DNA from: Marsupella aquatica | Taxonomy: Eukaryota; Plantae; Marchantiophyta | Assembly: GCA_973895155.1 (NCBI GenBank) | Contig: OZ316891.1 | Span: 14,911,037 to 14,975,036 of the forward strand | DNA: 64,000 nt | Direction: 5' to 3' | Shown: positions 3,022 to 58,888 of the stretch, one piece after another | Numbering within the stretch: position 1 is the first letter of the stretch | Layout: each line of letters opens with the position of its first letter | The notes under the pieces: generated by a model | Seen by the model: the letters and a program-made list of their open reading frames with translations, nothing else | Told to the model about the DNA's origin: nothing | Databases searched by the model: none | Made by a program: the position numbers and the translations under genes

Positions 3022-3023
3022 AT

Positions 3024-3035
3024 TGGTATCAGAGC
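3024..3035 (+). promoter_or_regulatory. Primer binding site (tRNA-iMet) of Copia-1
   Basis: TGGTATCAGAGC follows the LTR end after a 2-nt spacer; the same site occurs at 25383-25394 and, with one mismatch, at 57580-57591. Confidence 0.92.
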
Positions 3036-8835: not shown

Positions 8836-9026
8836 GGTTACTTAACATTTGTGTAGATACTGAGATATGCTCTTGCTCATTCCTTGTATAGGCTACGGCT
8901 TAGTTTTGGTCTACTCTCATATAAAGAGGGAAAAACCGGTTTGGTTTTTCTTTCCAGAACTTCCCGCTGAGCAATCATATTGGTAGCAGTCTTTACCCTC
9001 CCCTAGACCAGAGTCAAGGGGGAGAT

Positions 9027-9371
9027 TGTTAGGATTTACTCTTAGGTCTAGAGTTACAAATGTACTGTAGTTAAGGCTAACCTTAGTCGCAGACTTGGTT
9101 AGGTTAGTCATGCTGTGCACACTCTATAACCAAGAGGTGTTTGCTTGGAGAGGGGGAACTCAGGCTCATTGTTACGGAGCTAGTTGAGAAATAGAGAGAG
9201 CTTGCGTTGTGGATGCTTGGTATGGCCGGTCGGCCTAGAGTGCAGTAAAGCTCATGTGTGTTCCCGTGGACGTAGCCTCATGTGGAGGTGAACCACGTAT
9301 CTCTCTGTGTCGAATTTTGTGTGTTGGATGGTTCATGGGCTTGCCGTTGCGATTGTCGTCTATGCTCAACA
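9027..9371 (+). repeat. Copia-1 3' LTR
   Basis: TGTTAGGATTTAC...GCTCAACA, following the PPT. Confidence 0.95.
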
Positions 9372-24817: not shown

Positions 24818-26453
24818 TAGAGTTATAAACATAGGTGTAATCTTAAACCATGGTTAATCCTCTTTGAATGTGCTGGCATCTTACAAAATGGGGACTGATT
24901 TGAGCTTGTGCTCAGCTTTGTACTGAAAAATACATGGTTAATCACAATAATCTACCAAAGGTGGGAGTGACTTAACCATAGTTGAAATTAGTGGCAAAGA
25001 GAAGCAAGACCTTGATATGTGCATGTTGTTGACAATGTTAGGATTTACTCTTAGGTCTAGAGTTACGACTGTACCATAGTTAAGGCTAACCTTAGTCGCT
25101 GACATGGTTAGGTTAGTCATGTTGTGCACACTCTATAAGCAAGCAGTGTTTGCTTGGAGAGATGGAACTCGGGCTCATTCTTACGGAGCTAGTTGAGAGA
25201 TAGAGAGAGCTTGTGCTGTGGATGTTTGGTATGGCCGGTCGGCCTAGAGTGCAGTAAAGCTCTTGTGTGTTCCCGTGGACGTAGCCTCATGAGGAGGTGA
25301 ACCACATATCTCTTTGTGTCGACTATTGTGGGCTAGATGATTCATGGGCTTGCCGTTGCAATCGTCGTCGATACTTAACAATTGGTATCAGAGCATGTCT
25401 GGGAGGTGACGAGGTCTTTTTTGTGACGGTTTTTCCAGCGTTCATTGTCGGTGTTACATTTGGAGTTTTGTCGCATGAAACTCGAATGTGTGTGGTTGAA
25501 CGAATAGATTAGTGAGAGGGCTTTCTAACGGTGGTTAGAACTTGCTGATCGGTATCCGTGGTGTGGAGGAATCAAAGTTTGTGTCAATCTGGAGTTTTTT
25601 CGTGTTCGATGGTATTTTGGGGGAGAAACTAGAGATCGTTTTTTCAACGGTTTGAGTTGTGCGGTGCGGGAGGCATCGCATGTTATAGCTCATGTTGGAC
25701 GTTAAAGCGAGCTGTTCATTTTGGTAGTTGAGTTGCTGTCGAGTGGTTACCGAGTGCGTCATGACGAGTGAAGGAGACGTTCAGATTTTTTCACAGGCTA
25801 TGGAGCTTGTTCTCATCTGAACCGGGTTAATCGTCGTCACGTCCAACTTGGAGGAAGAAACGCGAAGTGCTACGGCTCAATGTTTTGATCGCGGCAAGGC
25901 GGTCATTTTGAGTCCGAGATTGGCACTTGACGTGGAGTGAGTATGACACGACGGAAGATTTTTTCTCTGCTGAGCTCACAGATTGTGTCGGTGCAATTCG
26001 GCAACATTTCCCCGTCGGCGGTCATCATTTTTACTCGTGGAATTGGCGGCAACAAGCAACGTTGGATGTTGGCAAATTGTGTTTCCTACGGCAACTTAGC
26101 GCACCGCGGAGAGGTGAGGTGCGGCGACGACCTAGGGCACAAGGAAAAGACAAAGTTAGTGAACAGTAACTTTGTCCAGGAATTGCGGCAGGATTTTCAT
26201 AGCAACAGGGTTTCTAGGGAGACCCGGAGTGACCAGAGGGAGCCTCGCTCCAAGGGCGCCCCTAGGGCACCTCACTCCAAGAGCGACCCAAAGTGACTAG
26301 GGGGACCAAAATTTGTATAACTTTTCCGTCGAAGTTTGTTTTTGATTTTGGTTTTCAGTCTTGGACTCCTAGCCTCATGGGCTACGCGGCAATGATTAGT
26401 TTTGAGTTTTTTGAGAAGTTGTGAAAAACATTGTTTTTTTGTGATTTTCTCAT

Positions 26454-29400
26454 ATGAGTGATTCAGAGGAGATTTTCGAAGACGTGGAACTTGAAGCACG
26501 AGGATCACCGCAGCGGTTTGTGGTGGAGAGAGAGGAGCAGGAGGAAGAGCACGTGACACCGATACCATCACCTGTGCGACGAGTGGTGGAGGAAGCAGTT
26601 CTTCTACCGGAGCTCACGGTAGTGCCAAAGAAGAAGATGGATACGTTCAAGCTTGGGAGACCCAAGTATGAAGTGACAAAGTATGATGGGCGCTCTGACT
26701 ACTTGCTTTGGGAGAAGCAGGTGAAGGGAGTGCTCTATGCGTCAGGGATGGGCCAACTATTGAGCCCTCGTGAAGACGATGTTGATGAGAAACAATGGGA
26801 TCGCATGCAGGAGCAGGGAGTGTGGTGTGTTACACTCTATCTCATGCCTCCCATCATCAAGCAGTTGGGTGCACATAAGGATTGCATGTCCTTGTTTGCG
26901 GAATTGCAGAGCAAGTATCACCGCAAGTAGTTGTCAAACCGGCTCTATACTTCCTACAAACTGATGAGTTTCAAGATGAAGAAATCTGGTACGAAGTTGT
27001 AGGACCATGTGGATGTTTTCAACGACATGGTCATTGACTTGGAAAACCTTGGGGAGACTTTGAATGATGAGACGAAGGCTCTGCAGCTTCTCAGTTCATT
27101 GCCTCCATCTTACCAATCCCTATCATGGATGTTGTTGTATCGTGATAGGGATACCATTTCATACAATGACGTGGTAAGTTCTCTGCTTAGTGATGATCTT
27201 CAGCAAAAGATGCACATCACGTCACAACCTTCATCCTCTGGTGCTGCCCTCATTGTTAACCATGGGAGGAGTATGCAGCGACCAACTGGGGAGCGTAGAA
27301 CCCAGTTTAGATCTAAATCCAGATCTAAGTCCAGAGGTAAATCCCCTCAGAGAAGGCAGGTGACATGTTGGAAGTGCAACCAGGTTGGACACTTCAAGCG
27401 AGACTGTAAGGGAAAGGTAGCTAAATCTTCATCGACAAATGTGGCTAGGGCTGATGGAGATGCTGATTTACTCAATGATGAGTATGTATTATGAAGCCAA
27501 GGGTATGCTCTATGCACGTTATCTAGGAGAGCAAATGATGTGTGGATTCTTGATTGTGCTTGCTCTTTTCACATTTGTTACATTCGAGAGTTTTTCAGTT
27601 CTTACTCTGTTTCAAACGCTTCAGTTCTGATGGGAAATGATCACTTCTGTCAAATTGAGGGTATTGGGTCTATGAAGATTCAAATGTTTGATGACACTAT
27701 GCGCACAGTGTCCGGAGTCAAGTATGTACTTGGCATGCGTAAGAATCTGATTTCACTTGGTGTGTTGGATTCAAATGGTCATCAATGGAGCATTATTGAT
27801 GGTGAACTTCAAGTCAGGTCGGGAGAGACAATGATCTTGAAGGGGAGCAGACAGAAGAATTTGTATGTGTTGTAGGGCAATACTGTATATGGAGAGGCCA
27901 ATGTAACCAAGTCTCACGAGGAGATGACTAATCTGTGGCATTCACGGCTAGGCCACATGAGTGAGAAGGGTTTGGCTATCTTACGGAAGAATGGACTCAT
28001 TTCTAATTTGCAATCTTGTAAATTAGAGTTCTGTGAGCATTGCATTCTTGGAAAGCAGCATCGTCGTGCTTTTGGTGTTGGAACTCATCGTTCCAAAGCG
28101 GTTCTTGAGTACATACATAGTGACGTGTGGGGTCCATCCCCGACTCCCTCACACTCTGGAAATTTGTACTATGTATCATTTATTGACGATTACTCAAGAT
28201 TTGTGTGGATTTATTTCATGACGCATAAGTCTGATGTCTTATCCATTTTTAAGAAGTGGAAGGCCCAGATGGAGAATCAGACTAGAAACACGGTTAAGTA
28301 TTTGGATACAAGGGTGAAGAGTCTGAGGTCTGACAACGGTGGGGAGTACACTTCAGTGGAATTTCAAGAGTATTCTTCAGAACAGGGGATAACTTGCCAT
28401 CTCACCACAGTTTATACTCCACAGCAGAATGGTGTCGCTGAGAGGCTTAATCATACACTGTTGGAGCGGTCACAGAGTATGTTGAGCCAATCAGGTTTAC
28501 CACAAGAATTTTGGGCAGAGGAAGTGATGCATATGCTCTCACACCAAAGCAAAATAGGACCAAGTTGGATCCTACCTCCAAGAAATATGTTTTTCTTGGG
28601 TACCAGAGTGGTGTGAAAGCCTATAGGCTATGGGATCCTATTGCCTGTAAGCTCGTTGTCAGTAGGGATGTTTCCTTCAATGAATCTAGATTATTGAAGG
28701 AGGGGGAGAATACTCAGATCTCCCGTACTGACAAAGGAAAATCTCCTATCCTGGATCTCGTTGAGGGGGAGATTGGTCATGAGGTCCATGACCGGAGAGA
28801 AGAAGTTGCTCCAAATATGGAGTTGGTTCCTGTGCCAGAGGAACCAGAGGAGTTTGTTGATGCTGGTGAACAGCAAGTGGATGCTACTGAGCTTCAGATT
28901 GTACCAGCACACATGGATCAACCAGAGTCATCGGCTAGAAGAACATCTGGTCGCACTGTACGCGCTCCACCAAGGTATGGACAGTGGGTTGATTCATCTC
29001 AATTGCAAGAGGAGGTTTTGTTACTGACGATGAGGGTGATGGGTTGATTTTGGAAGAAGGGGAACCTTCTTCATTTCATGAGGCAAGTGCTTCTAAGGAG
29101 AAGCAGGAGTGGACTGCAACAATGCAAACGGAGATGCAGTCACTGAAGTACAACAAAACTTGGGAGCTTGTCAAGCTGCCTGAGGGACAGCAAGTGGTGG
29201 ACAACAAGTGGATATACAAGCTAAAGGATCAATTCACGGGAGGTGGATCGAAGGTCTACAAGGCTAGGTTGGTAGCCAAGGGATTCACACAGAAAAAAAA
29301 TGTGTGGATTACAATGAGGTCTTCTCACCAGTTGTTAAGTACTCAACAATACGGCTATTGTGTGTGCTTGTTGTAATGTTTGATCTGTTGCTAGATCAGA

Positions 29401-30530
29401 TGGATGTTGTCACAGCCTTCCTCTATGGCACCTTGGAAGAGGTGATCTTCATGAGACAGCCGCTAGGTTTTGTGAAGAGAGGGCAAGAGGATTTGGTTTG
29501 TAGATTGCTGAGATCCTTGTACGAGTTGAAGCAGTCACCAAGACAGTGGAATAAGCGGTTTGATGATTGGATTCGTGCACAAGGCTTTCACAGGAGTGTG
29601 TTTGACCCATGTGTGTATCTGAAACCGGTGAAGAATGTTGTCTTTGGGTTCATTGTTTTAGTACTTTATGTGGATGACATGCTTATTGCGGCCAAGGACA
29701 GGTCTGAGATTGTTAAGCTCAAGGCACTACTAAGTGCAGAGTTTAAGATGAAGAACTTAGGGCCAGCTAAGAGGATTTTGGGTATGGAGATCACTAGGGA
29801 CTTGGAGGCTGGCAAGCTATGGTTGACGCAGAGCAGTTATGCGATGAAGGTAATCGCAAGGTTCAACATGGGGGATAGCAAGCCAGTAAGTACCCCGTTG
29901 GCTCCACACTTCAAGTTGTCATCAGCATTCTGTCCTACGGATGAGACAGAGAAGGGGCTGATGTCAAAGGTTTCTTATGACAAGACAGTGGGGAGTCTCA
30001 TGTATTTGATGACCTACACTAGACCTGATCTTGCCATGGCTATGGGCAAGGTGAGTAGGTACATGTCGAATCGATGCTGACTATGCACAGGATCTGGATC
30101 GAAGGAGGTCAACAACAGGTTATGTGTTCACACTAGGAGGTGGATGCATAAGTTGGAGATCTACTCTACAGAAGTGTATTGCCAGTCTACTACAGAAGCG
30201 GAGTATGTTGCAGCAACGGAAGCATCAAAGGAAGCAATTTGGTTGGATAGACTTATCACTAAGATGGGATTGCCACAGGGGAATGTGAAGCTCCATTGTG
30301 ATAGTGAGAGTGCACTCCACCTTGCTGTGAACCAGGTGATGGATAGCAGAGTGAAGCACATCGACGTCAGGTACCATTTTATCAGGCAGGCTGTGTCTGA
30401 TAATATGTTTGAGCTAGTCAAGATTGACGGTAAATTCAACCCGGTTGACGCATTTACCAAAGTGATTCCTTTGGAGAGTTTTTCTAGACACCGTGATGCG
30501 TTGCAGGTTTTGCAATTGCCTCACAAGTAG
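26454..30530 (+). pseudogene. Copia gag-pol polyprotein, disrupted
   Basis: Same motifs as copy 1 (CWKC Zn knuckle, WILDC, RSDNGGEY, YTPQQNGVAER, YVDD, KHIDVRYH), with stops, frameshifts and deletions near 28520 and 30071. Confidence 0.95.
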
Positions 30531-30720
30531 GGTTACTTAATATTTGTGTAGATACTGAGATATGCTCTTGCTCATTCCTTGTATAGGCTACGGCTTAGTT
30601 CTGGTCTACTCTCGTATAAAGAGGGAAAAACCCTTTTGGTTTTTCTTTCTAGAACTTCCCGCTGAGCAATCATATTGGTAGCAGTCTTTACCCTCTCCTA
30701 GACTAGAGTCAAGGGGGAGA

Positions 30721-30818
30721 TTGTTAGGATTTACTCTTAGGTCTAGAGTTACGATTGTACCATAGTTAATTGTTGGGATTTACTCTTAGGTCTAGAGTTA
30801 CGATTGTACCATAGTTAA
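30721..30818 (+). repeat. 49-bp tandem duplication of the start of the Copia-2 3' LTR
   Basis: 30721-30769 and 30770-30818 differ by one base. Confidence 0.92.
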
Positions 30819-31982
30819 GGCTAATCTTAGTCGCTGACATGGTTAGGTTAGTCATGTTGTGCACACTCTATAAGCAAGCAGTGTTTGCTTGGAGAGATGG
30901 AACTCAGGCTCATTCTTACGGAGCTAGTTGAGAGATAGAGAGAGCTTGTGCTGTGGATGCCTGGTATGGCCGGTGGGCCTAGAGTGCAGTAAAGCTCTTG
31001 TGTGTTCCTGTGGACATAGCCTCATGATCGAGGAGGTGAACCACGTATCTCTCTGTGTCGACTATTGTGCGTTGGATGATTCACGGGCTTGCCGTTGCGA
31101 TCGTCGTTGATACTTAACAGACAGTAGATGGCTTGATGCATATAATGAGGGTGCAGTGTGCTAAACCCCTTTAATGCACACTTTAAGGCAGCTAGGGAAA
31201 CCCAACTAATACAAATCATTTAACTTATGTTTACTTAGGTACAGTAAAATGGGCATGTTAGGGGTTTCTGCTAAATAAGAGGTTTAGGGTGCACTCCCAC
31301 CCACACTTAGGATTAGAATAACTGGGAGTAAAGTATCATGATTTTTAGAAAATTAGCTTTACAAAACTTGACTATTCCCTAAGTCTTCCAACTGTATTTT
31401 TGGCCTAACTTGTTTCCTACCCCCCAGATCAAGTTTTTTGGTCCTTTTGATAGGGTGAAAAGTTTCAAACAGTTATTGTCAATTCTGTCAGTCAGAATTT
31501 ACTGCTTGATAGCTCTCATGCCTATCCTCCTTTGATACTTCCCACCATAGCAATGGCCTCCAAGAGAAAATTCAGCTGATCATCTGAATTTCTTTTGCTT
31601 GCTTGGAGGAGGTTTTCTGCCGTGACAGGAAACAGTAACAGGAAACAGGAAATGGTAACAGTAAAATAAGTGAGGAAATTTACACAATATTTGCGACATC
31701 CATCAATAAAAAGGGTGTATAAAAATGCCGAGTATATTAGTAGCGCCTGGCGCTACTTTAAAATGTGTGTTACATGGTAGCAAAAACACAAAGCCCGATG
31801 ACAATACAAAATCTTAAGAGATACCATGAGCAGAAAAATGGCTAAAGAATTGGGATGTAGTAAGCTTGCAAGAAAACATGGAGAACCGAGACTACAACCT
31901 AACACCTTCAATCTCCGATGGCGGTAGCGCCAGGCGCTACTATCGCAAAAGTCTTTAAGAAGACTCCATCTTTCAAACAATC

Positions 31983-32453
31983 TCAGGACGTCGATGAATG
32001 ACACTCATCATCGACTCCCGCATTGAAGCGATCCTCGTCTCGGCGAAATCCATCCTCTCGCTCAACAAAAAAACGCAGTCCTAGAAGGCGACTCCTCAGC
32101 CTGCAATTTGGAATGTTGGAGTCAGAAAATCCAACTCGCCCGGTCCATTGTTGAATGCCCCTAAAAAACGCCGTCCATCCAACCCTATAGACATCGGAAG
32201 GATCCAGATCGTGAATAGAGAACCGTTCTCTAAAAGACCGGGGAGGAGACGAATCAGGGCATGATTCTGGTTTTGCTCGAAGGCTTATCCCCTCGTCCAA
32301 GGCCAGCCATAGTCGATTCCTCTCCATTGAGGTGACAGGGTGAGGAGTCTCATCAATCGGGACCTCTGAGGCAAGCAAATCAATTGAAGCTTTGCCTTCC
32401 AACTTTGTGGGGCCGGAAGTTCTCTCACACAAGACTTGCTTTCCTTTCTCCAT
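31983..32453 (-). CDS. Putative accessory ORF of the MULE (156 aa, unknown function)
   Basis: ATG-initiated ORF inside the element, on the same strand as the ParB-MTase gene; no recognisable domain. Confidence 0.35.
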   Translation of the reverse strand: MEKGKQVLCERTSGPTKLEGKASIDLLASEVPIDETPHPVTSMERNRLWLALDEGISLRAKPESCPDSSPPRSFRERFSIHDLDPSDVYRVGWTAFFRGIQQWTGRVGFSDSNIPNCRLRSRLLGLRFFVEREDGFRRDEDRFNAGVDDECHSSTS

Positions 32454-32855
32454 GGTCTCTGGATCAATGTCTATGCCGCGCTAAACGCAAAAGAGCTCCT
32501 GGAAATCCTCGAACATCGGCGATGTCAAACGGAGAGGGTGTAAAATAGAAGAGGGTGTCGAAATACCTACCGTTGCGAAGGAATTCAACCTAGGGAAACA
32601 GGTATGTATGGTAGTCAAGGTCATTAAGGATTTTCATCGTACATCAGTACATGTACTTGCAGTTTGGAAAACATTACACTACACTTCACATCAGAAAAAG
32701 ATATGCGGAAGCTAATACCTTTCCCACTTTGTATTTATATAAAATTGATGCGTACAATAAGTAGCGCCTGACGCTACTATTTTGGAGGAGGTAATATGTT
32801 TTAAAATCATGAATATATAACTAATCTAATTTAAACTAACCTAATCCAATGTAAT

Positions 32856-33168
32856 CTAATCTCCAGATTCCGACTCACTACTCTCCGATCTATCCGTACT
32901 CTCTGCTTCATCGTCGATAAATTCATTTCGTTCCATATCATCGACAAATGGATGACGGATGAACTTTCTATCCAAACCACGTCTCAATCGCAAGCCCTTA
33001 TTCTCCCAGGTCAGGGTTCTTCTACTCTCTTCTTTGCGAGCGGCATACTCTGCGTATGAAGGCAATACAAATGGTTTCTCAAGGGTAATTAGGACTTTGC
33101 TTGAAAATTTCCTTCACAGATTGAACCTCTCGCGAAGATTCCACTCTGACCTACGAGTCAGTTGAAAC
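32856..33168 (-). pseudogene. Possible small accessory ORF or exon with an acidic C-terminus
   Basis: Frame reads FQLTRRSEWNLRERFNL*RKFSSK...LPSYAEY...EFIDDEAESTDRSESSESESGD, with one internal TGA. Confidence 0.3.
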
Positions 33169-33258
33169 ACTAAGTACACTTCGAGAGATTCCAGTAATTC
33201 AAGTATGCAAGATAAAAAGAAAACGGAAAGTTAAGTAATGTAAAGGAGCTTACGGGCA

Positions 33259-36200
33259 TTACTCAGAAGAATCTGAATCTTCCGTTTCTCCTTCTGAATT
33301 CCCCTCATCCTTTTTCTCTCCTTCTTTCTGGACATCAATCCCGGCCTCTTCATCAGCTACATCGTCTTCCTCTTCTTCGGAATCAAAATTCAGAACAGAT
33401 CAAACTTTATCTTTCACTTTTTTCTCCATGTCTTTGCTCGGACCAGCCTCACTCAATTCTTTCGGGAGGAGCAAGTCAGTGTATGTCCTCTCTGCAATAG
33501 AAACAAATTCCTTGCGATTCTCAATCCCAAGGATGAAACGGCCACAAAAATCACCAGCCACAAATGTACTTCCTGACCCAACCGTCCAGTCCATAATAAT
33601 ATCTCCCGGACGAGAAATTAACTCCAGGACAGACTGCATGAAGCCAACCGGTAGTCGTGCATTCCCTGCAAATGCAGCTTCTTGAACAGGATCCTTCTTT
33701 AGAGTCTGCAGCCCAATGAGGTTTGTGATTGAAGGGTCCTCGGTTGAAGACAAAGGCTTGAACTTTGAATATTTGGGGACCCTAACCTTCGATGTAACTC
33801 GACTAAAGATATCAAGTCTTAAGGTGAAAACCTGGAAAATAAACAGTATTCAATATGAGATTTGGTAACATATATTAATAGCGTCTGGCGCTACCCAAAA
33901 GACCCTGTGTACACGAGGACATTTACATGTGAACATCAAACATGAAATGAGATCTATTAATAGCGCCAAGCGCTAGCAAATGATTCTCTTGATTCAAAAG
34001 GACAATTACCTAACAATCGCTTTTGGCCATGTACATTGGGGCACCCATAACAACGTTGAGCGTTTTGAGGCACTGGAACTTTTGGGAATCTTGGCTGGCC
34101 GAAATTACTTGGGAGATCTGGTCATACTCCCCAGTGTGCAAAACTGCTAACAACCCATCATCGGCAAGAAATGGGTCCATTGCCCGAAAGAAAGAGCCAA
34201 CCATTCGGTGATCCGGTACATTCCACTTTGGCGATTTTTGGTGAAGCAAAGAAGGTCGTAGACCTGTCGGTAGGTAGACAAAACCCGCATCCACCCCAAA
34301 AGATCTCAACTTGCCTCCCCTAACTACCCCTTTCTCCCGGAGACCAAGTGTCACTAAGTCTTTTCCCCACTTCTCGACATTCGTCACCCACCTGGGTTTA
34401 GTCTCTTTTGTAAAAATAGAATCAAAAAAGTCCATTAGACTGGACTCAACAAACATATGACGGCAAACTTTGGACTTGAATTGACCAACTTCTCGTTGGA
34501 TGCCAGTACATGCATACGAATCTCTAGAAGAAGAACCGAGATCAAGAGTTTTCTTCTTCTTTTTTCTGGTGCTTGTGGCATCAACCGGACGATCAATGTT
34601 GGTATTTGCAGGAGGAGTCTGCTCTTGGGTAGCATCGGCAGCCTCAGTGTTTGCTTCAGATTGATCAGGGGTAATGGTCGTCTTTGCATCTTGAGTTTCT
34701 TCTCCCTCTGATTTCCTACCCCCTGTAGAGAATCGAAAAGGTAAGAACACTGGGAAAACTATAACAGCGCCCGGCGCTAGCCAAACATTTACTTTCTAAA
34801 TTCTCGTGTATGAGTATACATTTAATAGTTTAAAGTAGCGCTTGGCGCTAACCAAAATCAATGCAAACAACTAAGTGAATTTCAGAGGAAAAGATCAAGA
34901 AGAATTGCAAAAAGTCATATAACTTACGTTTTCTTCCGGATCTCGTGGACGGGCTATTCAATCCTGTATCAACTTTTACTTTTGCGCAAGGTCTTCGGCT
35001 CCTGTCAACATGTAAGACTTCAGTCTCACATATTTTTTGAAGCTCCACTGCAGAAGCTTCAACGTCTCCCACCAATCCTTCCTTCATCTCAGACAACCAT
35101 TTCCGAGGAACTAAAGATTTGGACAATTTCAAAAAGGCATCTTTCTCAGATTCATCAAAAGGTGTATCCCACTTATCAGTATCGAGGTACTAGGGACAGT
35201 TTGTTCGCTCCCAAACAGAAATGTCACGTGGAGGATTGGCTCTTTCTGCAGGATACATCGAGTAAACCTCACTGAAATCATCCCCATCCATGACCGACCA
35301 CCTCTGGAATGCAGGAGGATAAGCCCAAAAATATTCAGGAGAATTGCTCTCCATGGACAAGAAGAACCAATAAAGGTATCTCTTTGCCCGCTTCTGGTTT
35401 CGGGAAGAAAAATCTTCTTTCTCCCCGTACTTTGACGCCCACATTGTGTTAAAAAACTTTGCCTTGACTGTATCTCCATAACTTTTGAAATCATTGCAAA
35501 TCGTCTGCACTAAAGCATCAAAAGTTTCTACACCTCCTGTGACAAGTCGTTCCGGAGGCATGACAGATTGAACTTGTCTGAGAGCAGTCTGCATCATCCC
35601 CATTGAAATTCCTTCGATCCAACTCCACATGTGCAAAGTGTGACACCATTGTTTAACTGGTTCGTCATTCACACTCGGCGGATGGAAAAATTGCTTGCGA
35701 AGTTCGGGCGTGCAATGCGCCACAAGAAGAGTGGAATGCAACTTTGGGTCCAAAGCTGAGACGGCAGTAAAGAGACGAGAACGATCCATCGTGCAAACCA
35801 CAGCGTCTACTTTCCGTTCTCACTTGTTTTTCTCTGTCAGCGTGTACATTTCCGCACATGTTGACAGAAAATCTTCGAATTTGGGGCTAAGGAGTGGAGT
35901 GATCTTTGAGGTCTTCACGCTCCATTCTTTTGTGGCCTCCTTCATCATTGTCGCATGACACTTGGTGACCTCCTCCTTTGACCACGGCCTCCCTTGAGTG
36001 TTTGCAGTCGCCATGTCCAATTTGAATTGCATAGAGTATGACTTGATCTTGTTCTCGCACAAGATGTACACAAGGGCCTCCAAAGGCATCTTCTTCATAT
36101 ACCAAGAGCCTTTCCTTGTCTTTGCGCGAATTGCCTCAAAGCATTTGAAGTTTCTGGCGTCAATTATCGTCTTGTAATAATCAAGGTCATGGGACAGAAT

Positions 36201-37056
36201 TTGACTAATTCTGTCAGCATCGAGGATCCACGACGGTTCTACAACGGCTTGCCCCAATCTGTATACAACCATTTGTTAGCGCCAGACGCTAACCAAAATC
36301 CCACAATTGAAAATTTGTCCAAATCAAAGAAAATGACCAAACTTACTGATTGACAGTGTGCATGGCGGCTTCAATCTCAATAAGAGAACCTCGATCTCCC
36401 TTGAACACAGTGCATAGCACACAAGGGTGGTACTTGATATTTTCGGGGTTCTCTTTTATTACCTGCGACCAGGAATATAGACGATGATTCCCGTTGAACA
36501 CACAAAACATCTTATCTTTTAAGACAAGGAAATCTGGATCTGCTTCACAGTCCGCTTCAAATTTCTCATTCTGGACAGTCCAGACAGCATCCAAACTCTT
36601 GCGGATTTTGGGGGTACAAAATTGGATGACGCCTTTAGAAACAGCGGGTTGCACGTAGAATCGCATCGCAATGGAGGAGTTGTAACCGGAACTGCGAAAT
36701 GATTCTTTTAGCTTCTCGATTGAAGCGCTCTCCTTCTGGAGAGTCCAAACAACTTCCATATTGACCAGGCGACAAAGCGGTATACGCGGAGGGTCCTTGG
36801 GCTCTCCTCTGAAATTAGTGTCGAGCGACATTGCATGTTTGGCAATCACATCTCCCATCGCTAGCGACCCTTCACACCCGTCTTCCATGATGAAATCACT
36901 CGAATTCTCCATGACACCTCGTCTCTGCGTTGGGAAAGTCTGCGCAGAGTTCCGAAGAGAATGCGATGTAGTCGAGCGAGTAACGCGTCGTGTGTAAATA
37001 GAACCAGCGAACGATGTCTCCGATGTTTGAGAATTACCTGGGGAAGTGTTGTCCAT
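33259..37056 (-). pseudogene. ParB/Srx-like domain + beta-class N4C/N6A DNA methyltransferase-like fusion; ~1108 aa in 4 exons (37056-36347, 36258-34928, 34722-34010, 33831-33259), with 4 premature stops
   Basis: All three GT-AG introns preserve frame (3327 nt in total). ParB-like FCVFNGNHRLYSW at ~36470-36505. MTase motif IV-like VDAGFVYLPTG..W..FFRAMDPFLADDGLLAV precedes motif X/I PVGFMQSVLELISRPGDIIMDWTVGSGSTFVAG..GRFILGIE, which is the beta-class order. In-frame stops at 35820, 35190, 34010 and 33400; acidic tail. Confidence 0.82.
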
Positions 37057-37484
37057 CTCGGGATAAAGAGTCTTTGGCCCTAAAATTTGGAGAGTTCTCA
37101 GCCACTCACAAAGGCCTGCAACGTACTGTTGCAACCAAATAGATACGACCCACGTCCGAAACAGCCAGTATGGAGACCGTTTTCCTGCAACAGAATGACA
37201 CGACAGCAAGATCAGATTTGTCAAATTGACCTTTGACAGGAAAAAGATCCCAAAAAGGCCGACAGCTGACTTAAATATGAATGTTCCATGATGAAAAATA
37301 TCAGGTAATCGAGCAATCGAACCAAAGAGAAAGGGACAGTTGGCATATAGTACTGACGTGGCTACTCAAATGTAACAAAAAATCTCATAATTAACATTCA
37401 TTCAAGAGGTAAAAATGGTCACACAGGCATAAAGTTACCATTACAAATATCCGTTGGACAGACAACTCGGAGGATAAACATTAA

Positions 37485-37912
37485 TAGCGCCCGGCGCTAT
37501 CATAAACATCACTCCTTCTAGACCAAAAAGTACACATATTTTCTTTTGAGTCGACCCTGAAATACTAGTAATCCACTGAGTTTCAATAATAGCGCCCGAC
37601 GCTATTATTGATTGTTGTCTAACATTCATAAAATCTTTCAAATGTTCCATCATATACATCAGAATCTCTTGTTTTTTCATTTTCCGCAATAATAGCGCCA
37701 GGCGCTATCAATGGAGAGTATCAAACAAAGTCATGTTTTGCATAATTCTGATTTTAAATTTCACGCTTTTGAACGATGATCTGGTAGGGTTTTTGCTAGC
37801 GCTTGGCGCTATTATTCTCCGTTGTGAAAATGTCCGTTAAATTAACAGAAACATTTTGTTTTCAACGGTCATCCGTCGCCATTTATCTCAAATTTATCCG
37901 TTGAGTTAACGG
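37485..37912. promoter_or_regulatory. Putative bidirectional promoter region: four phased palindromes plus an AACGG/CCGTT cluster
   Basis: Palindrome spacings of 105, 103 and 104 bp; five AACGG/CCGTT motifs in 37819-37912; lies between ATG 37056 (-) and ATG 38029 (+). Confidence 0.5.
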
Positions 37913-38028
37913 TAAAGTTCTAAATATTTTTTGCGTTTGAGTGTGGTTTCTTCGTTCTTGATGATTTACTTGAGGGAAATAATAAACCGAGGCTGGAAAC
38001 ACCCTTACCATTTTTTCATTCTGTCAGA

Positions 38029-41000
38029 ATGTCACGGGTTATTAGGGTAAAATGTCCTGAAACGGGAGACGTGATTAGCGTTCCTGTGACTTACGGAGAT
38101 GGTAATCAGCGTGTGAGCGAAGATTATCTTTGCGGAAGGTTTGATGTTAGGAGGAAAGACATTGAAAGCTTAGGGACAGCTGCCAAGGGGGTAGTGAATT
38201 CTTTTTACATTTTTGGTCAAAAATGGTGGGAACTGCACTGCGGTGTCGAGTACACGCTTTTCCTCCGAGGAAAAGTAGTGAAACTAGAGACGGTGGATGC
38301 ACCAACAGAGGTCATTGATCTCACGTCTGATGGCGATGACTCTTCCCCTGTCTCTCAATTGCCGATTGACATTAGGAACATCAAGCGTGAAGAGTGTCAG
38401 TTGTTGAAGAATTCATTTCCAATGCATCAACGTAGTACCTCAACGGAAGACAGTGGAGGTGACAAGCTTCTTAAATCTCCTTCTCTTGCTATAGTTTACA
38501 GAAGGAGCGCATTTGACGCCCTTCTGAAATTGACTGGTCAAAGTGAGCTATCTCGATTTGTACAATCAGAAACTTTCAAGCACGAGCAAGTAGAATTTCT
38601 TCCCAAAACTTACAACGGCAATGTCATATTTGAGCCTCGGGGGTCTCACTATATAGGGACCTCCCCATCGCCTGCGACGTTTTGAAGCCTAGGACCCCCT
38701 AAAATGTAAGAATTTTTAAAAAAAAATTAACCCCTATAAAGTTGGAATATTCTTGGAATATTCTAAAAAATGGATTAAAAAGACCCTAATGTTCTTATAA
38801 GTCTCAAAATTGAATTTAAAAGACCCTATTGTTCTTCTACAAAAATTCTTAAGTCTTCCCTTAGAACCAATAAAATGACCCTATCCTTCGTCGCACGTGA
38901 TATGCCATTTTTGTGGAAGTGAAACCCCCGAGATTTGAGCTTCCGCCTGTCAATTGTGTGGGTTCAAAGGGGAAGCATCTCCTTAACATGGACCGTTTGA
39001 AGGATTGCTATCTCTGGACTTGAATTATTCCTACTTCTGCAAATGTTTTGCCGAAGAAGATGTGGGGGTTTGGTAAAGTCAGTTGTAGCGGATCACTTGA
39101 ATGCCAAAACAAATCATGCAAGTTTTATACCAAAACAAATGGTAGGAATTGTAGCTCCTGGGAAGGGACCCCCAAGTTGGGAGGCCAACATTGTCCAGGA
39201 AAGTTGATTGATTCAGGAGGGATTGTTTGTCGGTATTGTCTTCAACTTCCATTCTGTTTGGACTCCTGTTCCACAAAAATGTTTTACATGTACCCACAAG
39301 TTCTCCTGGATTTGGCGACAACGCAACATATGTCACACCTTGCAGTACATATGGGTGTCCATAACCATCCGTGTCGAAAGGTCTGGTCTAGAAGTTCGAA
39401 GATGATAGCGGTCGAAGAGATTCGGAAAGAGCATTTGAAAAATGCGATCACTGGATCTCTTAAGGATGCACTAGATGAATCTATCGATGACATCTCGAAG
39501 ATGGAAGAGAGTGAGATTTGGCAATCACTTATGCTTGTTTCGACTCCGCAGAAGTTCTCTGCCTTGTTTAAGAGTGTCCGGAAAGATCAGGCCGGGCGAG
39601 GAGACCTCGAATATCTGGTTCGGATGCAGAAGAATGTCAGGTTCCCGTTTGTTCAAAGGTATCTACTTCCAGGGCAAGGCTCTAAGGAGGACCGAGCTCA
39701 TATTTTCAAAATGATGATCAAAGGGCATGGATCCGGAGTCGATTTGTTGCGACAGATGAAAAAGGGTGGACCCCTCGAAGGTGCGTGGGTGAGTTTTGAT
39801 GTCATGAAACGAATGTCAAAAGATTGGAGTACTTTTAGCGCCCATGTTTATGACCATAACTATCGAGCTTTATGTACAATATTTACGTGTGAGCTGAAAG
39901 CGGAGGACACTGAATCTCTCGAGAAAGCATGGAGATTAATGATTGAGGTCGCTTTAGAAAATGGGGTAGATGATGTTCAAATTCATGGATTCATGGCTGA
40001 TAATGCTCAGTCAGGGAGGCGTGCGGTCAGAAACGTTTTCTTTGGGGGCCATCCAAATCCGGAGAAAGAGAGATCGGATGCTTTTCATTTTTACCAATCT
40101 TTGCACCGCCATTCTATCGAAGGAGTGCTTGAAGACAAACGTTTTGAGCATCGCCTCCTCTGGGATAAGCTCAGAAATGCATCAACGTTTGTCAAAGCTT
40201 ACAGGATTTCCCGAGAAATTGATTTGTGGTGGAGATCTGGCATGGCAATTGCATTCCCGGGAAGCTTCGGATGCTGCAGGGATGGATCTCTTGGTGGGTT
40301 GTAAGATGGCAACAATGGGGAAATTTTATTCGACTTGTAAGTATCACCATTTTTGACTTATTGAATAGACACTTCCATACTAGCGCCTGACGCTATTATT
40401 AACACCTTCTTTTTCTTGATTCTCTCAGCGTTTTGGTCAGCGCCTGGCGCTACCTTTAATTGATACATATTGTTGAAGAATATCAACTTATCTTCCAAAA
40501 GTAGATTTTGAGATTTGACAAACTCTGGCCGTCCTGCAGAGCAAAAGTGCACAAGAAGGAGGGATGATTCCTAATTGCACTGGATCTGAGGCAGTTCATG
40601 GTATCATGAAAGCTTGGCAAGGGAAGAAAACTATCGGATTATTTGAGGGTTGTAAAATTGACCACAATCGTGCAATCTCTCAAATTGCTGCTTATACTGC
40701 CTATTGGGATGGGTTACATAGAGGAACAGGTCCTACGGTATTTGAACTAGCTTTCCGTTCAGCGGACCTGGCTGGATCCCCTCAATTGTTCGAAGAGGCT
40801 TCTAATTTGCTACTAGCTAATGCGGCTGAATTTGATTTGGAGAGGAGTACTCCATTGAACGGTGATTTTGTAACCAAATCTATCAAAAGAAAAGGTCCAG
40901 CGATAGGGAATGTCTCGGCACAAGACTCCCATCGTCATGACACCATTCTGATAACAACACCGAATACACGGGGTTTGAAACGGAGAAATCTGAACTCGGC

Positions 41001-42051
41001 TCAGTTTTCTCATATTCCACCAAGTGTTCCTGAGACACCGATCGATTTGACTGGGAGTGAGGACCTGAGTGACTTGCCGGACGCATCTGCTTCTGGTCCA
41101 GGTGAAGAATTTTCCACATTACCAGAAGTCTCTCAAATGGACCAAACTCCAGTCCTCCCTGACACGTCGCTTTTGGAGTCGGACGTTGAACCTGGGTCTT
41201 GGCATCTTCGTCGAATTTCAAGACTTGGGCCTGGTCCTCAGTGTAACGGGACATTGTCAAGTAGATGCGATCGTGATGAGTGTCGAAACCGGATTAAGAA
41301 GGTTGGATATCCTTCTAATGCTGGAGTGATCGAAATTGTTGCGAAGGGACATCGCGTGTTCAGGAGTGAACCCATGCCGAGTTCGTGTGGTTTTGCCCCA
41401 ACGGCAGTTGTTGGAAAAGCCGCCCACATCGAGGCATCACTAACCTGCCTCCTTATCATTTTCCTTGCCAGTACTAACAGGAACACATTTGTCAAACTTG
41501 GAGTTATGTTTCCTGGAAGAACAGGGTGTTGCAATCTTCAGACAACACCACCAAAGCATGCCTGCCAACCCTACGCCTTTTGACTTGAGAATCAATATTG
41601 ATGTTTTTCCTGAGAAGATCAATATGGCACAAATCAACATCCGTGTTCAAACTAGGAATGGGCGCCCAATGAACCCCAGATCAAATCTTACTCAGGAATA
41701 CCATAGAAGGATCGAATCTGCTGCGAAGGAAACAATGACTCTTATCACAGAATTGGATGTTTCCTCGGGGAACTCATATGGGAAACGATTACTATCCAAA
41801 CACACGCTCATCTAAGGACGGCAAACACTTATTGGGTGCAGATTTGCGTATTCCCTTGTTGCTCTTGTGAGGACTTCTTTCGCTGACATTCTCGAGGAAG
41901 ACCTTTCATGCCTTGTAAACATTTGTACTGGGTTTACAAAACAATCTTCAAGCTTGATCCATTGGATTCGGTCTTACCAAGCCAGCCAATTTTGATTGTT
42001 GGAGAACTCCAGTACATCATAGGAAGGAGGAATTCGCATGGTTTAGAATAA
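38029..42051 (+). pseudogene. MULE-family transposase (GCM/WRKY-like Zn domain, DDE core, SWIM finger), disrupted by a MITE, stops and frameshifts; intron 40337-40539
   Basis: CSGSLECQNKSC...CRYC...C...HMGVHNHP; D1 in WVSFDV; D2 in GFMADNAQ..AVRNVF..DAFH (CxxH position); WISWWVVRW; E in CTGSEAVHGIMK; SWIM CSCEDF...PCKHLYWV at ~41856-41935. Removing the MITE restores the frame (IFELPPV). Confidence 0.85.
38636..38932. mobile_element. 297-bp MITE with 8-bp TSD, inserted in the transposase gene
   Basis: TSD ATTTGAGC at 38628-38635 and 38933-38940; TIR CTCGGGGGTCTCACT/AGTGAAACCCCCGAG (14/15 match). Confidence 0.93.
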
Positions 42052-42439
42052 TTCTTTTCAGTCTACTAGACGTTGAACGGGCATTTTTGGGTTGCCGTTT
42101 TTAACGGTAACAAATATTTTGTTAGCGGTCGGCGCTAGTAAAAGGCTGGCATTTTGTAATGTTGTTTTATCTGGCAACAAGTATTGGAGTCTCAAATCTT
42201 CCCAAATATCTTGAGTTTTGCTAGTGTTCATTTGGGAGAGATGACTCCAAGCAAGCATCAAGACATTTGATAGCTTTGTTGGGACCAATTGAAAACTCTG
42301 AAAACTGCAATCTCTACAGTGGAAAGTGCACATGTCATCGATGGCATACATGGTCCTTTCCATCAATGGCCCTTTGTAGAGGTTCTTCAGAATTTGATTT
42401 CCAGCCAATCTATTACTATAATACCCTATACTGCCAAAA

Positions 42440-44495
42440 ATGTCCATCAACAAATCCCGGATCATTCCTCTCTATCTCAATGGGGGAATTTATCCCGACT
42501 GGCTCAATGATACGGGCTGCCGAATCTCGGAGACAGGTGAAATCACTGAATACCTGGGATGCCCAATTGGGTACAACATCCGCCCTTCTCACAAAAACAA
42601 CTTCCTTCTAGGGAAAGTGAGAAAGCGATTGTTCCACTGGAACAATAGATGTCTTACTGTGGCTGGAAGGGCAATCCTACTGAAACATGTTCTGAGAGTG
42701 ATCACGACTTATCACCTCATGATACTTGAACTCCAAACAGCTGGATATCTTGACCTTGAAAAACTTTGTAGACGATTCTTGTGGGGAACCTCTCTTGAAA
42801 GGGGGCACAAAAAGGCTCTCATAGCCTGGCAGGAGATTGCAACACCTAAAGGAAGCGGAGACTAGGAATCTTACCTTTCAAAGACCAGGCCCAGGCACTG
42901 AAGATGAGACACGTCTCCAAGCTGATCAGTGGGGACAGTAGAGAGTGGGTGACCATTGGAAACGACATCATCAAAAAGGCACTGAAACGAGGAGCGAGAA
43001 TAAAAGAGAAGCGGTGGTGGACACCCACTGACACAATTTTACTAAGCACTGAGCTATGTGTGAAAGGCTCTCCCACTCTGAAGACGCTGCTCAAAGGGTG
43101 GTTTGAAAACAACCAGCGCCTGAAATTCAACTTTGGTTCTGGTAAGCTGTCATCCCATTTATCTATTGAGCACACCCTCCTACTGTATTCTAGGAATAAC
43201 CAGGTTAGTGACCAGGAAGGTACTTTGCTCAGGAGATACCTTTCATCCAGGGGGATCCGTAAGGTGATTGACCTGTGGTCGCAACAACACGGTTGGAGCG
43301 AAGGTGAAGCCATTAACAACAGTGAGAGTAAGGAGCAATAGACCTAACGGCCTTGAAGCCTTCACTAGATTCTACGACCTGCTTAAACAGTCTACGGGAC
43401 TGGGTGAACATAACCTGTCGGAAAGCACTGAATGGCAATGGGATTGGAAGGCGAAGGACAGAGGTTGGACTTTCCCCAACAAAACCTGGGTTAACTGCTC
43501 CCTTCCCCTTTCACAAGATGTTACCAAACTTAACCGGAGATGGGGGGGACAGAATTGCACATTGGACTGATGGAGACTATACTGGAAGCAACTTTATGGT
43601 GGCATGACTTTACCGAAGGTCAGGTTCTTCATTTGGCGGCTAATCAACCACTGCTTCTTCACAAATGGGAGAGGCAGCTATTGGAAGGTCTGCAATGGAA
43701 TGTGCAACAGATGCAAATTGGGATTTGAAAATACTGACCACCTTTTCTTTAGCTGCAGCAAAGTTTGCAAGAGGTGGAGAGAAATACAATGTTTGATGCA
43801 GGGTTCTTTTACCTTCTCCATAGGGTACACGTCACTCTTTGACACTATCCATAACGCTTTTCAGAATCAAAAAAGGAAATCGGGTACTATGGTTCTCCTG
43901 ATGGAACTTTGTAATAGCATCTGGAAAGAGCGAAATGCTGCCACTTATTCTCACTTCTTAGGTCGTCTCCCCGGATGGTGACACTTTGGTACACTGAAGC
44001 TTCCTTGAAGGCTATGATTGACCTGTGTCACTCCCCGAGGAAACACAGACAAATTCAGGAAGCCCTTGAACAGGTGCAGAATGTTCTTAAACCTTGGGAA
44101 CAGACTGACAGCCCGGTTTCACTCAACCCCACCAATGATGATGATGAAGCATGCAACATAACAGCCAATTGCAGGCTAGGAAAGACTCAAACTTGTGAAG
44201 GTCCTTGGGCACATGAAGTGGACTGAACATATTTGGAGTGGGCCTATTAGCCAGAGTGAAGTTGGTAGATTTGAGATTACTCAGGACACTAGGAGAAAAT
44301 ATCAGAATTATCCCTATAGGGGAATGAGTAGATGGGACTTGGATACGGACACCCTGAGGAGGATGCTCCGGGACCCTTGGTTGGACTAGATTTCTGGCGT
44401 TTTTCTGGCTGTTTGTCGCCGCTGGCCCCGACTTGTGCTTTCTGGGTGGTCTTTGCTCCCGCGGTGCTTTTTCCCATGTGTGGGGGAAAAAAAAC
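42440..44495 (+). mobile_element. 5'-truncated, frameshifted L1-clade LINE (RT C-terminus + zf-RVT)
   Basis: EYLGCPIG, RLFHWNNRCLTVAGRAILLKHVL, RRFLWG, IAWQEIATPK..GLGI, PKVRFFIWR, CNRC..ENTDHLFFSC; A-rich tail at ~44487. Confidence 0.88.
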
Positions 44496-55832: not shown

Positions 55833-57232
55833 TGAAAATATGCAGGCGGTTGGCAGGTAAAAGAAAGTAATGCACACTCATATATTAAGACTATTATTAA
55901 ACATATCATTTTTTGAAGTAAAATAGTGTACTAAAAGTGGAAATAAATAATGTTTTGGAATTTGCTGGTACAGTTAACTGCTAACTGTTTGACCTACAGA
56001 AGGAAAATATGCAAGTTTTCCACAAGAAAAAACATTTTATGGCCTACTTTAGAAATACACAATGATAACAGCAAAAAGCAACACTGTTAAGAAAAGAATA
56101 CACTGGAACAATGGGGAATGCAACATGTAGAGGGGGGCACCTGAGATGTTCAAGATCTGGCCCAGCCCACATTAATGTCCTGCTCAGGCCTCCATTGTCT
56201 TCTATCCATAGACAACCTTAACCTTGAGATTTTGTTCTCCAATGGCTTAGGGAAGTTGGTACATCCAAATCTCTACATACCTGAGAGGATTCCTTTATGC
56301 AGCAGATGGTCAGGACCAAACCACATCTTCTCCTTGATTCTAAATTTCTCATAAAGTTGTCGATGTCACTTCCCAATTTTGGTCAGGATCGAACCAAATT
56401 GTCTCCCTAACATTGGTAAAAAGACTATACACATTTCCAATCTTTGAACAGGTATGGGGCTAGGCATGGTTTCCAATCTCCATAGTGGTCAATGCCAATT
56501 GTAGACTAATATGGGTGAATGTACGATAGCACCCGCTTTTGTCGATCCCAGGTGTAAGACAACAAGGTAACCAGCTTGACCGATTCAGGCTCTAGCATGG
56601 TGTGTCTGTTGTGGTTGGGGCTGACCAAGTGGAGCTCTACTACTCTACTGCAGTAGTGACTAGGTACTACTCTACAGCGGTAGTAATTAGGTTAATGCAA
56701 AAAACAATAATTAAGTATTTTAGGCGCCCAGTCCAATGAAGTGATACCCCCACAATAGTAAGCTACCCTTTTGGGGAAATTGCGTGGAAATTCCCGGTGA
56801 AATTCAATTCTTGACATAACAGCTTGATTTTTTGTTAAGACCAGATGCCAGAACTAAAACAAGGAGGACAGTGAGATCCACTCCATTGCCATCTGTTTTG
56901 TTGAATTGTGTTTATTGTTGTATTATTATGTTGCCACCTTTTTCCACAGCTGGTTGAGTATAGTCATCCTTGTTAGCTTGGAATGATCCAACAATCAGCG
57001 TTGGACAATCCTCACCATACTCCAATTAACCTGAAAACCCTTGCCTGCCCTTGACCAAGGGGGCCAAGGGAGTGGGCCTGGGCAACGAACTAGGAGGGGC
57101 CTGGAGCACAATAAGAGATCCAACCTAAGAGTGTTAAACCTACAGTAGAATACATGGATGACCAAGTCATGGTGAGTGTCATATTGTTTCAAGTTAACTA
57201 TAGTTACTTTGCTTTAACCAGCAGTGGAAAAA

Positions 57233-58888
57233 TGTTAGGATTTACTCTTAGGTCTAGAGTTACGACTGTACCGTAGTTAAGGCTAACCTTAGTCGTAGAC
57301 TTGGTTAGGTTAGTCATGTTGTGCACACTCTATAACCAAACGGTGTTTGCTTGAAGAGTGGGAACTCAGGCTCATTGTTACGGAGCTAGTTGAGAGATAG
57401 AGAGAGCTTGCGCTGTGGATGCTTGGTATGGCCGGTCGGCCTAGAGTGCAGTAAAGCTCATGTGTGTTCACGTGGACGTAGCCTCATGTGGAGGTGAACC
57501 ACGTATCTCTCTGTGTCAACTCTTATGCGTTGGATGGTTCATGCGCTTGCCGTTGCGATTGTCGTCTATGCTTAACAATTGGTATTAGAGCATGCTTGGG
57601 AGGTGACGAGGTTTTTTCGTGACAGTTTTTCAGCGTTTAGTGTCGGTGTTAGATTCGGAGTTTCGTCGCATAAAACTTGAATGTGTGTGGCTGAGCGGAG
57701 AGATTAGTGAGAGGGCTTTCTATTGGTGTATAGAACTCACTGGTTGGTATCCGTTGAGTGGAGGAATCAAAGTTTGTGTCGTTCTGAAGTTTTTGTGTTC
57801 AACGGTTTTTTGGGGGAGAGACCAGAGCTCGTGTTTTCAACGGTGTGATCTATGTGGTGTGGGAGGCGTCGCATGTTATAGCTGAAGTTGGAGGTTGTGG
57901 TGAGCTGGTCATCTCGGTAGCTGAGTTGCTGCCGAGTTGTTACCGAGTGCGTTGTGACGAGTGAAGGAGGCGTTCAGATTTTTTTCACAGGCTATGGAGA
58001 TTGTTCCCATCTGAACCGGGTTTCTCATTGTGACGTCCAACTCGGAGGAAGAAATGCGAAGTGCTACGGCTTAACGGTTTGATCGTGATGAGGCGGTCGT
58101 TTGGAATCCGGGATTAGCACTTGACGCGGAGAAAGTGAGTTGCAACAAAAGGTTTTTTCCTCTACTGTATGTGTAGAGGTGCCGGTTCAATTCGGCAACT
58201 TTTCACAATTGGTGCACTTCACTTTCTCAAGCTAAACACGGCGATTAGGTTTGTAACATGGCCTTTGTTGTGCTTAATTTGGCAATTTTTTTTGGGTTAC
58301 TACAAGGTGATTGTTCGTGTGTCCCCGCACCTTTGATCAATACCCAGCCCTCCCCACTCATGACTGTTTGTGCAGCGCTGGCCGGTGCAAAAACAGCCGC
58401 ACGGACTCTCGGCCCGGCTCGCAGTGTACACGGCTGCGAAGCAGCCGCCCGATTTTTTTCTCCCTTCGCGAGCCGGCCCCGCCATACCCCGCCCCTTTAC
58501 TCTTTCTGCAGCCAACGATTGTCGGAGGCCGTCGCGAAGTCGCAGGGTGACTTCATACCACCCCGGCCTGGCCATCTTGCCTGTATTCGCCCCGTCCATG
58601 CCCTGCGTACTCCGGGTATGTGAGTACCCCCGGCCCTTATACTTGTGTTTTTACAAAAGGGCTTAAACCCCTCTTTTAAGGCTCATTTTTACGGAGCTAG
58701 TTGAGAGATAGAGAGAGCTTGAGCTGTGGATGCTTGGTATGGCCGACCGGCCTAGAGTGCAGTAAAGCTCATGTGTGTTCCCGTGGACGTAGCCTCATGT
58801 GGAGGTGAACCACGTATCTCTCTGTGTCGGCTCTTGTGCGTTGGATGGTTCATGGGCTTGCCGTTACGATTGTCGTCTATGCTCAACA
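57233..58888 (+). mobile_element. Ty1/Copia copy 3, internally deleted: 5' LTR + PBS + leader fused to the distal 210 bp of an LTR
   Basis: LTR at 57233-57577; PBS at 57580; leader homologous to copies 1 and 2; LTR fragment at ~58679-58888; flanks (G)AAAAA / GAAAA; no gag-pol. Confidence 0.92.

Follow-up and report, generated by a model that had tools for sequence, protein, structure and literature searches.

Among Mutator-like elements (MULEs), the non-TIR element VANDAL21 of Arabidopsis with its VANC21 protein is the described system that most resembles the locus studied here. VANDAL21 carries accessory genes, and according to the account in PMC5735166, VANC motifs sit in introns, intergenic stretches and terminal regions, multiply by the formation of tandem repeats and shift in number as repeat units are gained or lost. 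The motifs are described there as non-palindromic 8- to 9-mers within recognisable tandem repeats, and VANC as having DUF1985/DUF287 domains (PMC5735166). Many palindromes scattered over a mobile element are described for ParB-parS, Noc-NBS and KorB-OB of RK2 (PMC11790492). Eukaryotic domains of the N6_N4_Mtase family are reported in Marchantia DN4MT1 (10.1101/2021.02.12.428880) and rotifer N4CMT (PMC8885841), both presented as genes of the host that have an SPPY motif, with DN4MT1 lacking any further domain; ParB-HTH-fused Dam-type methylases are reported in chlorophytes and chytrids (PMC4738411). Finally, DUF3723 is described as a conserved cargo gene of fungal Starships, and thus as another accessory gene on a mobile element of eukaryotes, moved in that case by a tyrosine recombinase (PMC9156397).

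The stretch of Marsupella aquatica DNA that we analysed, referred to as the window, is 64,000 nucleotides long. Within it, the interval 31610..42170 (approximate ends) is one copy of a dispersed, multicopy DNA transposon family of ~10.5 kb, since contigs with identical unique flanks are found on both sides of it; these stop at 31648/31669 and resume at 42192. Multicopy contigs begin at 31625-31630, and the summed depth drops at both element ends. Family contigs, 80-99% identical to the element, number in the thousands in all four sequencing runs, which come from two studies, one of them possibly the source of the window. Among 6 runs no RNA source of the sequence was listed, which has no bearing on expression. 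The ends have only degenerate inverted similarity, centred on terminal palindromes at 31741 and 42123 that align in register within it, and no convincing target-site duplication is present at the estimated ends, of which the right one, next to a LINE fragment, is possibly cut short. The element carries a DDE transposase gene and a divergent ParB-fold/amino-methyltransferase gene and is, by predicted fold and motifs, Mutator-like. The MULE class criteria (PMC6446971) also include a TSD of 8-11 bp and long TIRs, the latter absent or degenerate in VANDAL-type elements. The window copy is decayed, with two stops, frameshifts, a MITE and altered conserved residues.

Several other features of the interval and its surroundings were recorded. 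The observed/expected CpG ratio is 0.80 in the element (31620-42170) and 0.54-0.56 in the flanks; the higher value could stem from a young age of the element, from its coding content or from methylation being kept off it. An orphan frame, ORF3 (31986..32516, minus strand), is covered by family contigs, and no homologs were found for it at 90-289 aa. The LINE fragment on the right (42200-44226; zf-RVT, E 1e-9) is decayed and has possibly truncated the right end of the transposon. LTR retrotransposons lie at 2462-9371, 25035-31119 and 57232-58888, comprising two copia-type elements that belong to a single family, along with additional LTR copies, and ORFs at 26445-30530 resemble gag, integrase and reverse transcriptase.

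A scan of the 64-kb window for the pattern TAGCGC-NNN-GCGCTA, tolerating at most two mismatches, returned 15 sites, all within 31741-42137, and none in the remaining 53 kb. Only 0.45 sites are expected by chance, and 0 of 100 shuffled sequences reached 15. Every one of the 15 sites is non-coding, in an element of which ~28% is non-coding (p about 5e-9, for an exon model inferred from ORFs, splice motifs and homology). Two sites lie by the left end (31741..31939; starts 31741 and 31925, gap 184) and one beyond the accessory gene, in the interval between it and ORF3 (32762..32776). Three accessory introns hold five, namely two in intron 3 (33879..33975, gap 82), two in intron 2 (34765..34850, gap 71) and one in intron 1 (36277..36291). 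The divergent intergenic region has four, the transposase intron two (40381..40452, gap 57) and the right end one, with two changes (42123..42137). Thus, 12 of the 15 sites are internal to the element.

The four intergenic palindromes had been singled out by the sequence-only reading as a regularly phased array in a divergent promoter, and the rescan recovered them exactly where it had placed them. They have the sequence TAGCGCCNGGCGCTA and start at 37485, 37590, 37693 and 37797, giving gaps of 105/103/104 bp. P1 (37485..37499; consensus RN-TAGCGC-CNG-GCGCTA-NY) and P3 (37693..37707) are exact; P2 (37590..37604), whose inverted arms run on into the flanks, and P4 (37797..37811) have one change each. 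The region is divergent-intergenic, running from the ATG at 37056 (minus strand) to the ATG at 38029 (plus strand). The divergent promoter in which they sit is that of a transposon, which has the other 11 of its 15 sites elsewhere. A host bidirectional promoter, which was among the candidates considered, was rejected because the palindrome region is inside a multicopy dispersed element.

The regularity of the array is real and far beyond chance: the probability that four random sites in 1100 bp have three gaps within 2 bp of one another is 6e-5, and 1.9e-4 if the span is taken as given. With these values and the shuffling result above, a chance origin of the even gaps and of the motif set was ruled out. 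We also confirmed that the spacers are unlike one another. The three of them could not be aligned, with z values for global alignment of -0.7 to -0.1 and ungapped identities of 28-35%; the highest z in 20 comparisons, which included the two flanks and reverse complements, was 2.6. Comparison in register gave p=0.13, and no residual homology of the spacers emerged. A recent tandem repeat with alignable spacers was rejected on the basis of both tests.

How the palindromes vary points to readout by a protein. Position -2 is a purine in all 30 half-sites, A-G-C-G is invariant in 30/30, and the CGs of the motif are likewise invariant. Half-sites rarely stand by themselves, 27 of the 29 half-site matches in the window being part of a palindrome. 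Where the core does change, the change is always uncompensated (0 covariation), and flanking positions show no clear tendency to pair: 6/15 sites pair at -2 compared to 7.4 expected, so no excess, and 7/15 at -1 compared to 3.8 expected (p=0.06). The sequence is also kept in diverged copies, which we compared as contig pieces; of 40 listed substitutions out of 108 in the promoter (39 places), 1 falls in the 60 palindrome bases (p=0.011), and this lone change is at a tolerated position. Given the -2 purine, the invariant CGs, the lack of covariation, and the conservation in diverged copies and in a relative described below, the palindromes are very probably protein-bound sites, as predicted from sequence, and their protein-bound appearance in the original description is upheld. 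The same data bear on the proposal that the palindromes act as DNA or RNA hairpins or cruciforms, or are tiny self-copying repeats. P2 has a fold z of -6.7 and one site of the relative has perfect 29-bp arms, as such a proposal would have it, but folding is weak for most sites (-4 to -8 kcal/mol), no change in the core has a compensating partner, and the flanks obey the consensus rather than pairing. We consider this explanation highly improbable, and the hairpin was rejected as a selected feature.

Among sequences related by their transposase, a metagenome locus (L001) whose transposase is 60% identical at the amino acid level has three palindromes in the same transposase intron, with TAGCGC half-sites, a 2-bp centre and gaps of 84 and 90. 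One palindrome of this locus (L001:1172-1231) has grown into a perfect inverted repeat with 29-bp arms (fold z -13), which suggests that the sites can seed fold-back expansions. L001 is the only one of 5 related loci with the motif. L002 has none in the 310 nt upstream of the transposase start, L003, a locus consisting of coding sequence only, has none, and L004 (42% identity) and L005 (23%) continue beyond the matched part but lack it. In none of the 5 does the motif occur together with the accessory gene.

We next consider the origin of the even spacing, where other copies of the family are informative. In these, the spacing is partly kept. A copy that is ~83% identical (X4 record 16) has gaps of 106/101/104, worked out by hand from an indel table in which 12 of 15 indels are listed, and two long diverged pieces have a net length change of 1 bp despite 9 gap letters each. 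On the other hand, copies with a 42-bp deletion have a gap of 61 (three runs, two studies), a copy with a 238-bp deletion has a gap of 74 (one run), and one copy has an additional unit. In this last copy (X3 record 9 / X4 record 19), 37553-37605 is present twice with 52 other letters in between, so that there are five sites and a new 105-bp gap. Since it contains an extra 105-bp unit, the array can change by whole units, although the observation comes from one locus in two runs of one study. This weakens the earlier statement that the array is not a recent tandem duplication: the spacers are indeed unalignable, but one copy differs by the gain or loss of an entire 105-bp unit. We consider it likely that the 104-bp period goes back to a unit which contained the motif and was duplicated long ago, the spacers having since diverged. 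Because no spacer homology is left, we infer rather than observe this origin.

The alternative put forward in the sequence-only reading is that the spacing, at about 10 helical turns, is under selection because it places bound proteins on one DNA face and keeps nucleosomes off the bidirectional promoter, a scheme that fits either of the candidate reader proteins discussed below. The regularity far above chance is in keeping with it, as are the 106/101/104 gaps of the ~83% copy and the net change of 1 bp in the two long pieces, even if the neighbouring +1/-1 indels in these alignments are possibly artefacts. The other close-pair gaps are 57, 71, 82 and 184 bp in the window element; L001 has gaps of 84 and 90, and other contigs have gaps of about 53 and 62 bp (by hand, to within a base or two). 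We tested nine spacings for helical phase, counting the promoter once and excluding the two deletion derivatives. With a turn of 10.3-10.4 bp, gaps of 53, 62, 71, 82 and 84 come close to whole numbers of turns, and p is 0.018 at 10.3 bp/turn; however, it is 0.084 at 10.4 and 0.27 at 10.5, and the best period in the range 10.2-10.6 gives p=0.058 (0.028 with the deletion derivatives added). The gaps of 57, 90 and 184 bp do not fit the phase, the family includes copies in which a gap is 61 or 74, and unit duplication would yield an even period without any selection. Helical phasing of the sites is thus borderline and not established. Repeat-unit duplication is the more likely source of the even 104-bp spacing, and selection for a shared helical face is, in our view, rather unlikely.

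The transposase gene (38029..41813, plus strand) encodes a protein with a Cys/His-rich N-terminal region and the putative catalytic residues D 39798, D 39999, DxxH 40077 and E 40588; L001 retains the D, D, DxxH and E motifs, as does the window transposase. Its 19 homologs, about 57% identical, include one from the liverwort Calypogeia fissa. There is no match in Pfam, MULE families included, and a predicted structure (pLDDT 70) has ISCth4 as best Foldseek match (E 1.4e-4), followed by Hermes, with an integrase-like core matching at Z 6-7. For the homolog P0003, the nearest Atlas clusters are MULE (0.86), which is used as a lead only. The N-terminus has a conserved Cys/His pattern that matches neither Pfam nor PDB sequences, and is putatively GCM/WRKY-like by its motif; GCM1 is not among the fold matches of the model, which cover only residues 243-426. 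The gene is interrupted by frameshifts near 40240-40270 and 41456 and by a MITE of 297 bp (38636..38932) with 15-bp TIRs and an 8-bp TSD (38628-38635 / 38933-38940), for which other copies have the empty site. The MITE itself is present in high copy.

The accessory gene (32880..37056, minus strand), with exons inferred from splice motifs and homology and an uncertain 3' end, is broken in the window by two in-frame stops in exon 2, and residues conserved in the family are altered at codons 36747, 36495 and 34276. Its exons are collinear with multi-copy proteins of Riccia sorocarpa of up to 1207 aa; homologs include those of liverworts, at only about 30% identity. Judged from such distant homologs of the two genes, a non-seed land plant is the likely host. 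The N-terminal domain (about 36349-36870, minus strand) is predicted to have a ParB/Srx fold. An AlphaFold model of this exon (pLDDT 91) superposes on ParB, Noc and KorB with Z 7.7-8.0 and rmsd 2.5-3.0 Å over 92-98 residues, the best match (Z 8.0, rmsd 2.7 Å, 98 residues) still having a middling Z and the Foldseek E value of 0.04 being middling as well; all 28 fold matches listed are of the ParB/Srx type or related kinases. The exon has 152 matches in an HMMER library search and none in the longer-protein search. Within the family, the conserved Arg and the GxHR-type motif of ParB/Srx N-domains are represented by R56, kept in 42/45 proteins, and G-N-H-R, kept in 41-44/45, and both R56 and D140 are changed in the window copy. 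Pfam has no match for the exon, with DndB reaching E 0.066 in 3/45 family proteins. The region following the ParB domain likewise has no Pfam match, and the fold of the middle region, between the ParB-fold and methyltransferase-like parts, was not recognised.

The C-terminal part (about 33460-34300, minus strand) is amino-methyltransferase-like, its exon matching N6_N4_Mtase (PF01555 positions 163-220) at E 7.7e-9, with further methylase matches in PHROG and NCBIfam. SAM-binding motif I is present and lies C-terminal to the catalytic motif, as in beta-class N4C/N6A enzymes. Motif IV, however, reads D-x-P-[S/T/F]-G in 5 homologs rather than DPPY/SPPY, departing from the canonical [D/N/S]PP[Y/F], and the window copy has Y where the homologs have D. 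Since motif IV is non-canonical, the activity of the methylase is doubtful or may be divergent, and the domain is possibly inactive.

These proteins set the element apart from the described systems in several ways. Like VANDAL21, it is Mutator-like with an accessory gene and has its motif in introns, between genes and at the ends, but the motif is here a 15-19-bp palindrome with unalignable spacers. Its protein combines a ParB fold with an amino-methyltransferase in place of the VANC domains, and neither DUF1985 nor DUF287 was matched in Pfam by 14 window ORFs or by 25 homolog and window proteins. As it lacks VANC domains, the element is not a member of the VANDAL/VANC group; by its sequence organisation it would work in a similar manner, perhaps with an anti-silencing role. 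With ParB-parS and KorB-OB it shares the predicted fold of the N-domain and the many scattered palindromes, and the RK2 KorB OB oligonucleotide TTTAGC-G-GCTAAA (PMC11790492) has TAGC...GCTA in common with our motif, which may be coincidence. It differs from them in being a eukaryotic transposon, in the methyltransferase-like fusion, and in that no ParA or KorA was seen. The likeness to DN4MT1 and N4CMT lies in the N6_N4_Mtase-family domain and in the presence of accessory gene homologs in liverworts, whereas the methylase here is transposon-borne, fused to a ParB fold and has a non-canonical motif IV; the architecture also differs from that of the ParB-HTH-fused Dam-type methylases (PMC4738411). 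In a language-model comparison, DUF3723 is nearest to the ParB-fold exon (36346-36912, minus strand; score 0.96, 191/256 features), a link to Starship cargo that consists of shared features and no alignment. Another near cluster is an unnamed one from cnidarians. This hints that accessory genes with a ParB fold may have arisen or been taken up more than once among mobile elements of eukaryotes. Searches of viral contigs for the transposase, for the ParB domain and for paired motifs were negative, phages yielded nothing with P0173, and a PDB sequence search gave no match for proteins of the element.

Which protein would read the palindromes? That they are recognition sites for a protein encoded by the element itself is a probable prediction, and ORF3 is a third candidate for that protein besides the two discussed here. 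We favour the ParB-methylase protein over the transposase, as a palindrome this strict suggests a dimeric reader and one product of the element has an N-domain with the ParB/Noc/KorB-like fold of clamps that load at palindromes. The best explanation, to which we assign a probability of about 45%, is that the transposon has a motif set read, in VANC-like fashion, by a ParB-fold/amino-methyltransferase dimer, with the 104-bp period stemming from duplication; the placement of 15/15 sites in non-coding DNA speaks for it. A dimeric protein of this kind would load at each palindrome, like ParB at parS or KorB at OB, and once loaded could tag or control the copies of its own element together with the two divergent genes, in the way that VANC acts on VANDAL. 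The motif-bearing unit would duplicate from time to time and the spacers would diverge afterwards, leaving the period of ~104 bp. Against a ParB-type reader, ParB/Srx folds also occur in enzymes that are not clamps, the modelled fold match is middling, and the one related locus with the motif does not show the accessory gene. A more elaborate version, in which the ParB fold would act as a CTP clamp that loads at its own sites, slides, and lets the amino-methyltransferase write or shield 4mC/6mA so that the element escapes silencing, is unlikely.

Should the transposase be the reader instead, its Cys/His N-domain would recognise the ends and the internal sites would serve self-regulation. The terminal sites at 31741 and 42123, in register within the degenerate inverted ends, fit such a role, and L001 links the motif to the transposase gene. 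WRKY-GCM1-fold DNA-binding domains are described in MULE transposases (PMC1702500), the AtMu1 transposase alone is reported to bind and activate its cognate elements (10.64898/2026.08.24.746577), and the MULE-derived FHY3/FAR1 are reported to bind CACGCGC (PMC13306707), which has GCGC in common with our half-site. However, AtMu1 peaks are described at TIRs (10.64898/2026.08.24.746577), while 12/15 sites are internal here, and the strict palindromic geometry is better suited to dimers of the ParB family. Moreover, a GCM fold in this transposase has neither a Pfam match nor a fold match behind it, the fold matches being confined to residues 243-426. We therefore see the transposase as a possible reader, if on the unlikely side.

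A host transcription factor co-opted by the transposon appears a poor candidate by comparison. Plant transposons amplify host factor sites, and host-factor input at the promoter is suggested by five AACGG/CCGTT motifs just downstream of the palindromes. These lie within 100 bp (37819-37912) immediately upstream of the transposase start, where their number is the maximum for the window (background 0.13 per 100 bp); they also occur at 42076-42103, three are found in the upstream 330 nt of L002, and they resemble MSA/MYB3R mitosis elements. But for the palindromes themselves, the 53 kb outside the element has 0 sites, and the centre shifts from 3 to 2 bp in L001. In addition, none of the papers searched, all from outside the subscription journals, contains this motif under any of five spellings. 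Hence, a host factor is a quite improbable reader of the motif.

A description of a MULE family with a ParB/N6-methylase gene was likewise not found in the literature searched, and the family may be catalogued in Repbase/Dfam, subscription journals or supplements. By itself, the 104-bp spacing that first drew attention to the locus is of less importance; more interesting is which of the transposon's proteins reads the motif. Self-recognition of transposons and their resistance to silencing are understood in few cases, those of VANC, TnpA and AtMu1. The present family pairs a sharp palindromic motif with two candidate readers, and a single binding assay could decide between them. If the ParB-fold protein is the reader, loading in the manner of parS would be at work in a eukaryote, and non-seed plants might have in this family a mobile element that supplies methylation other than 5mC.
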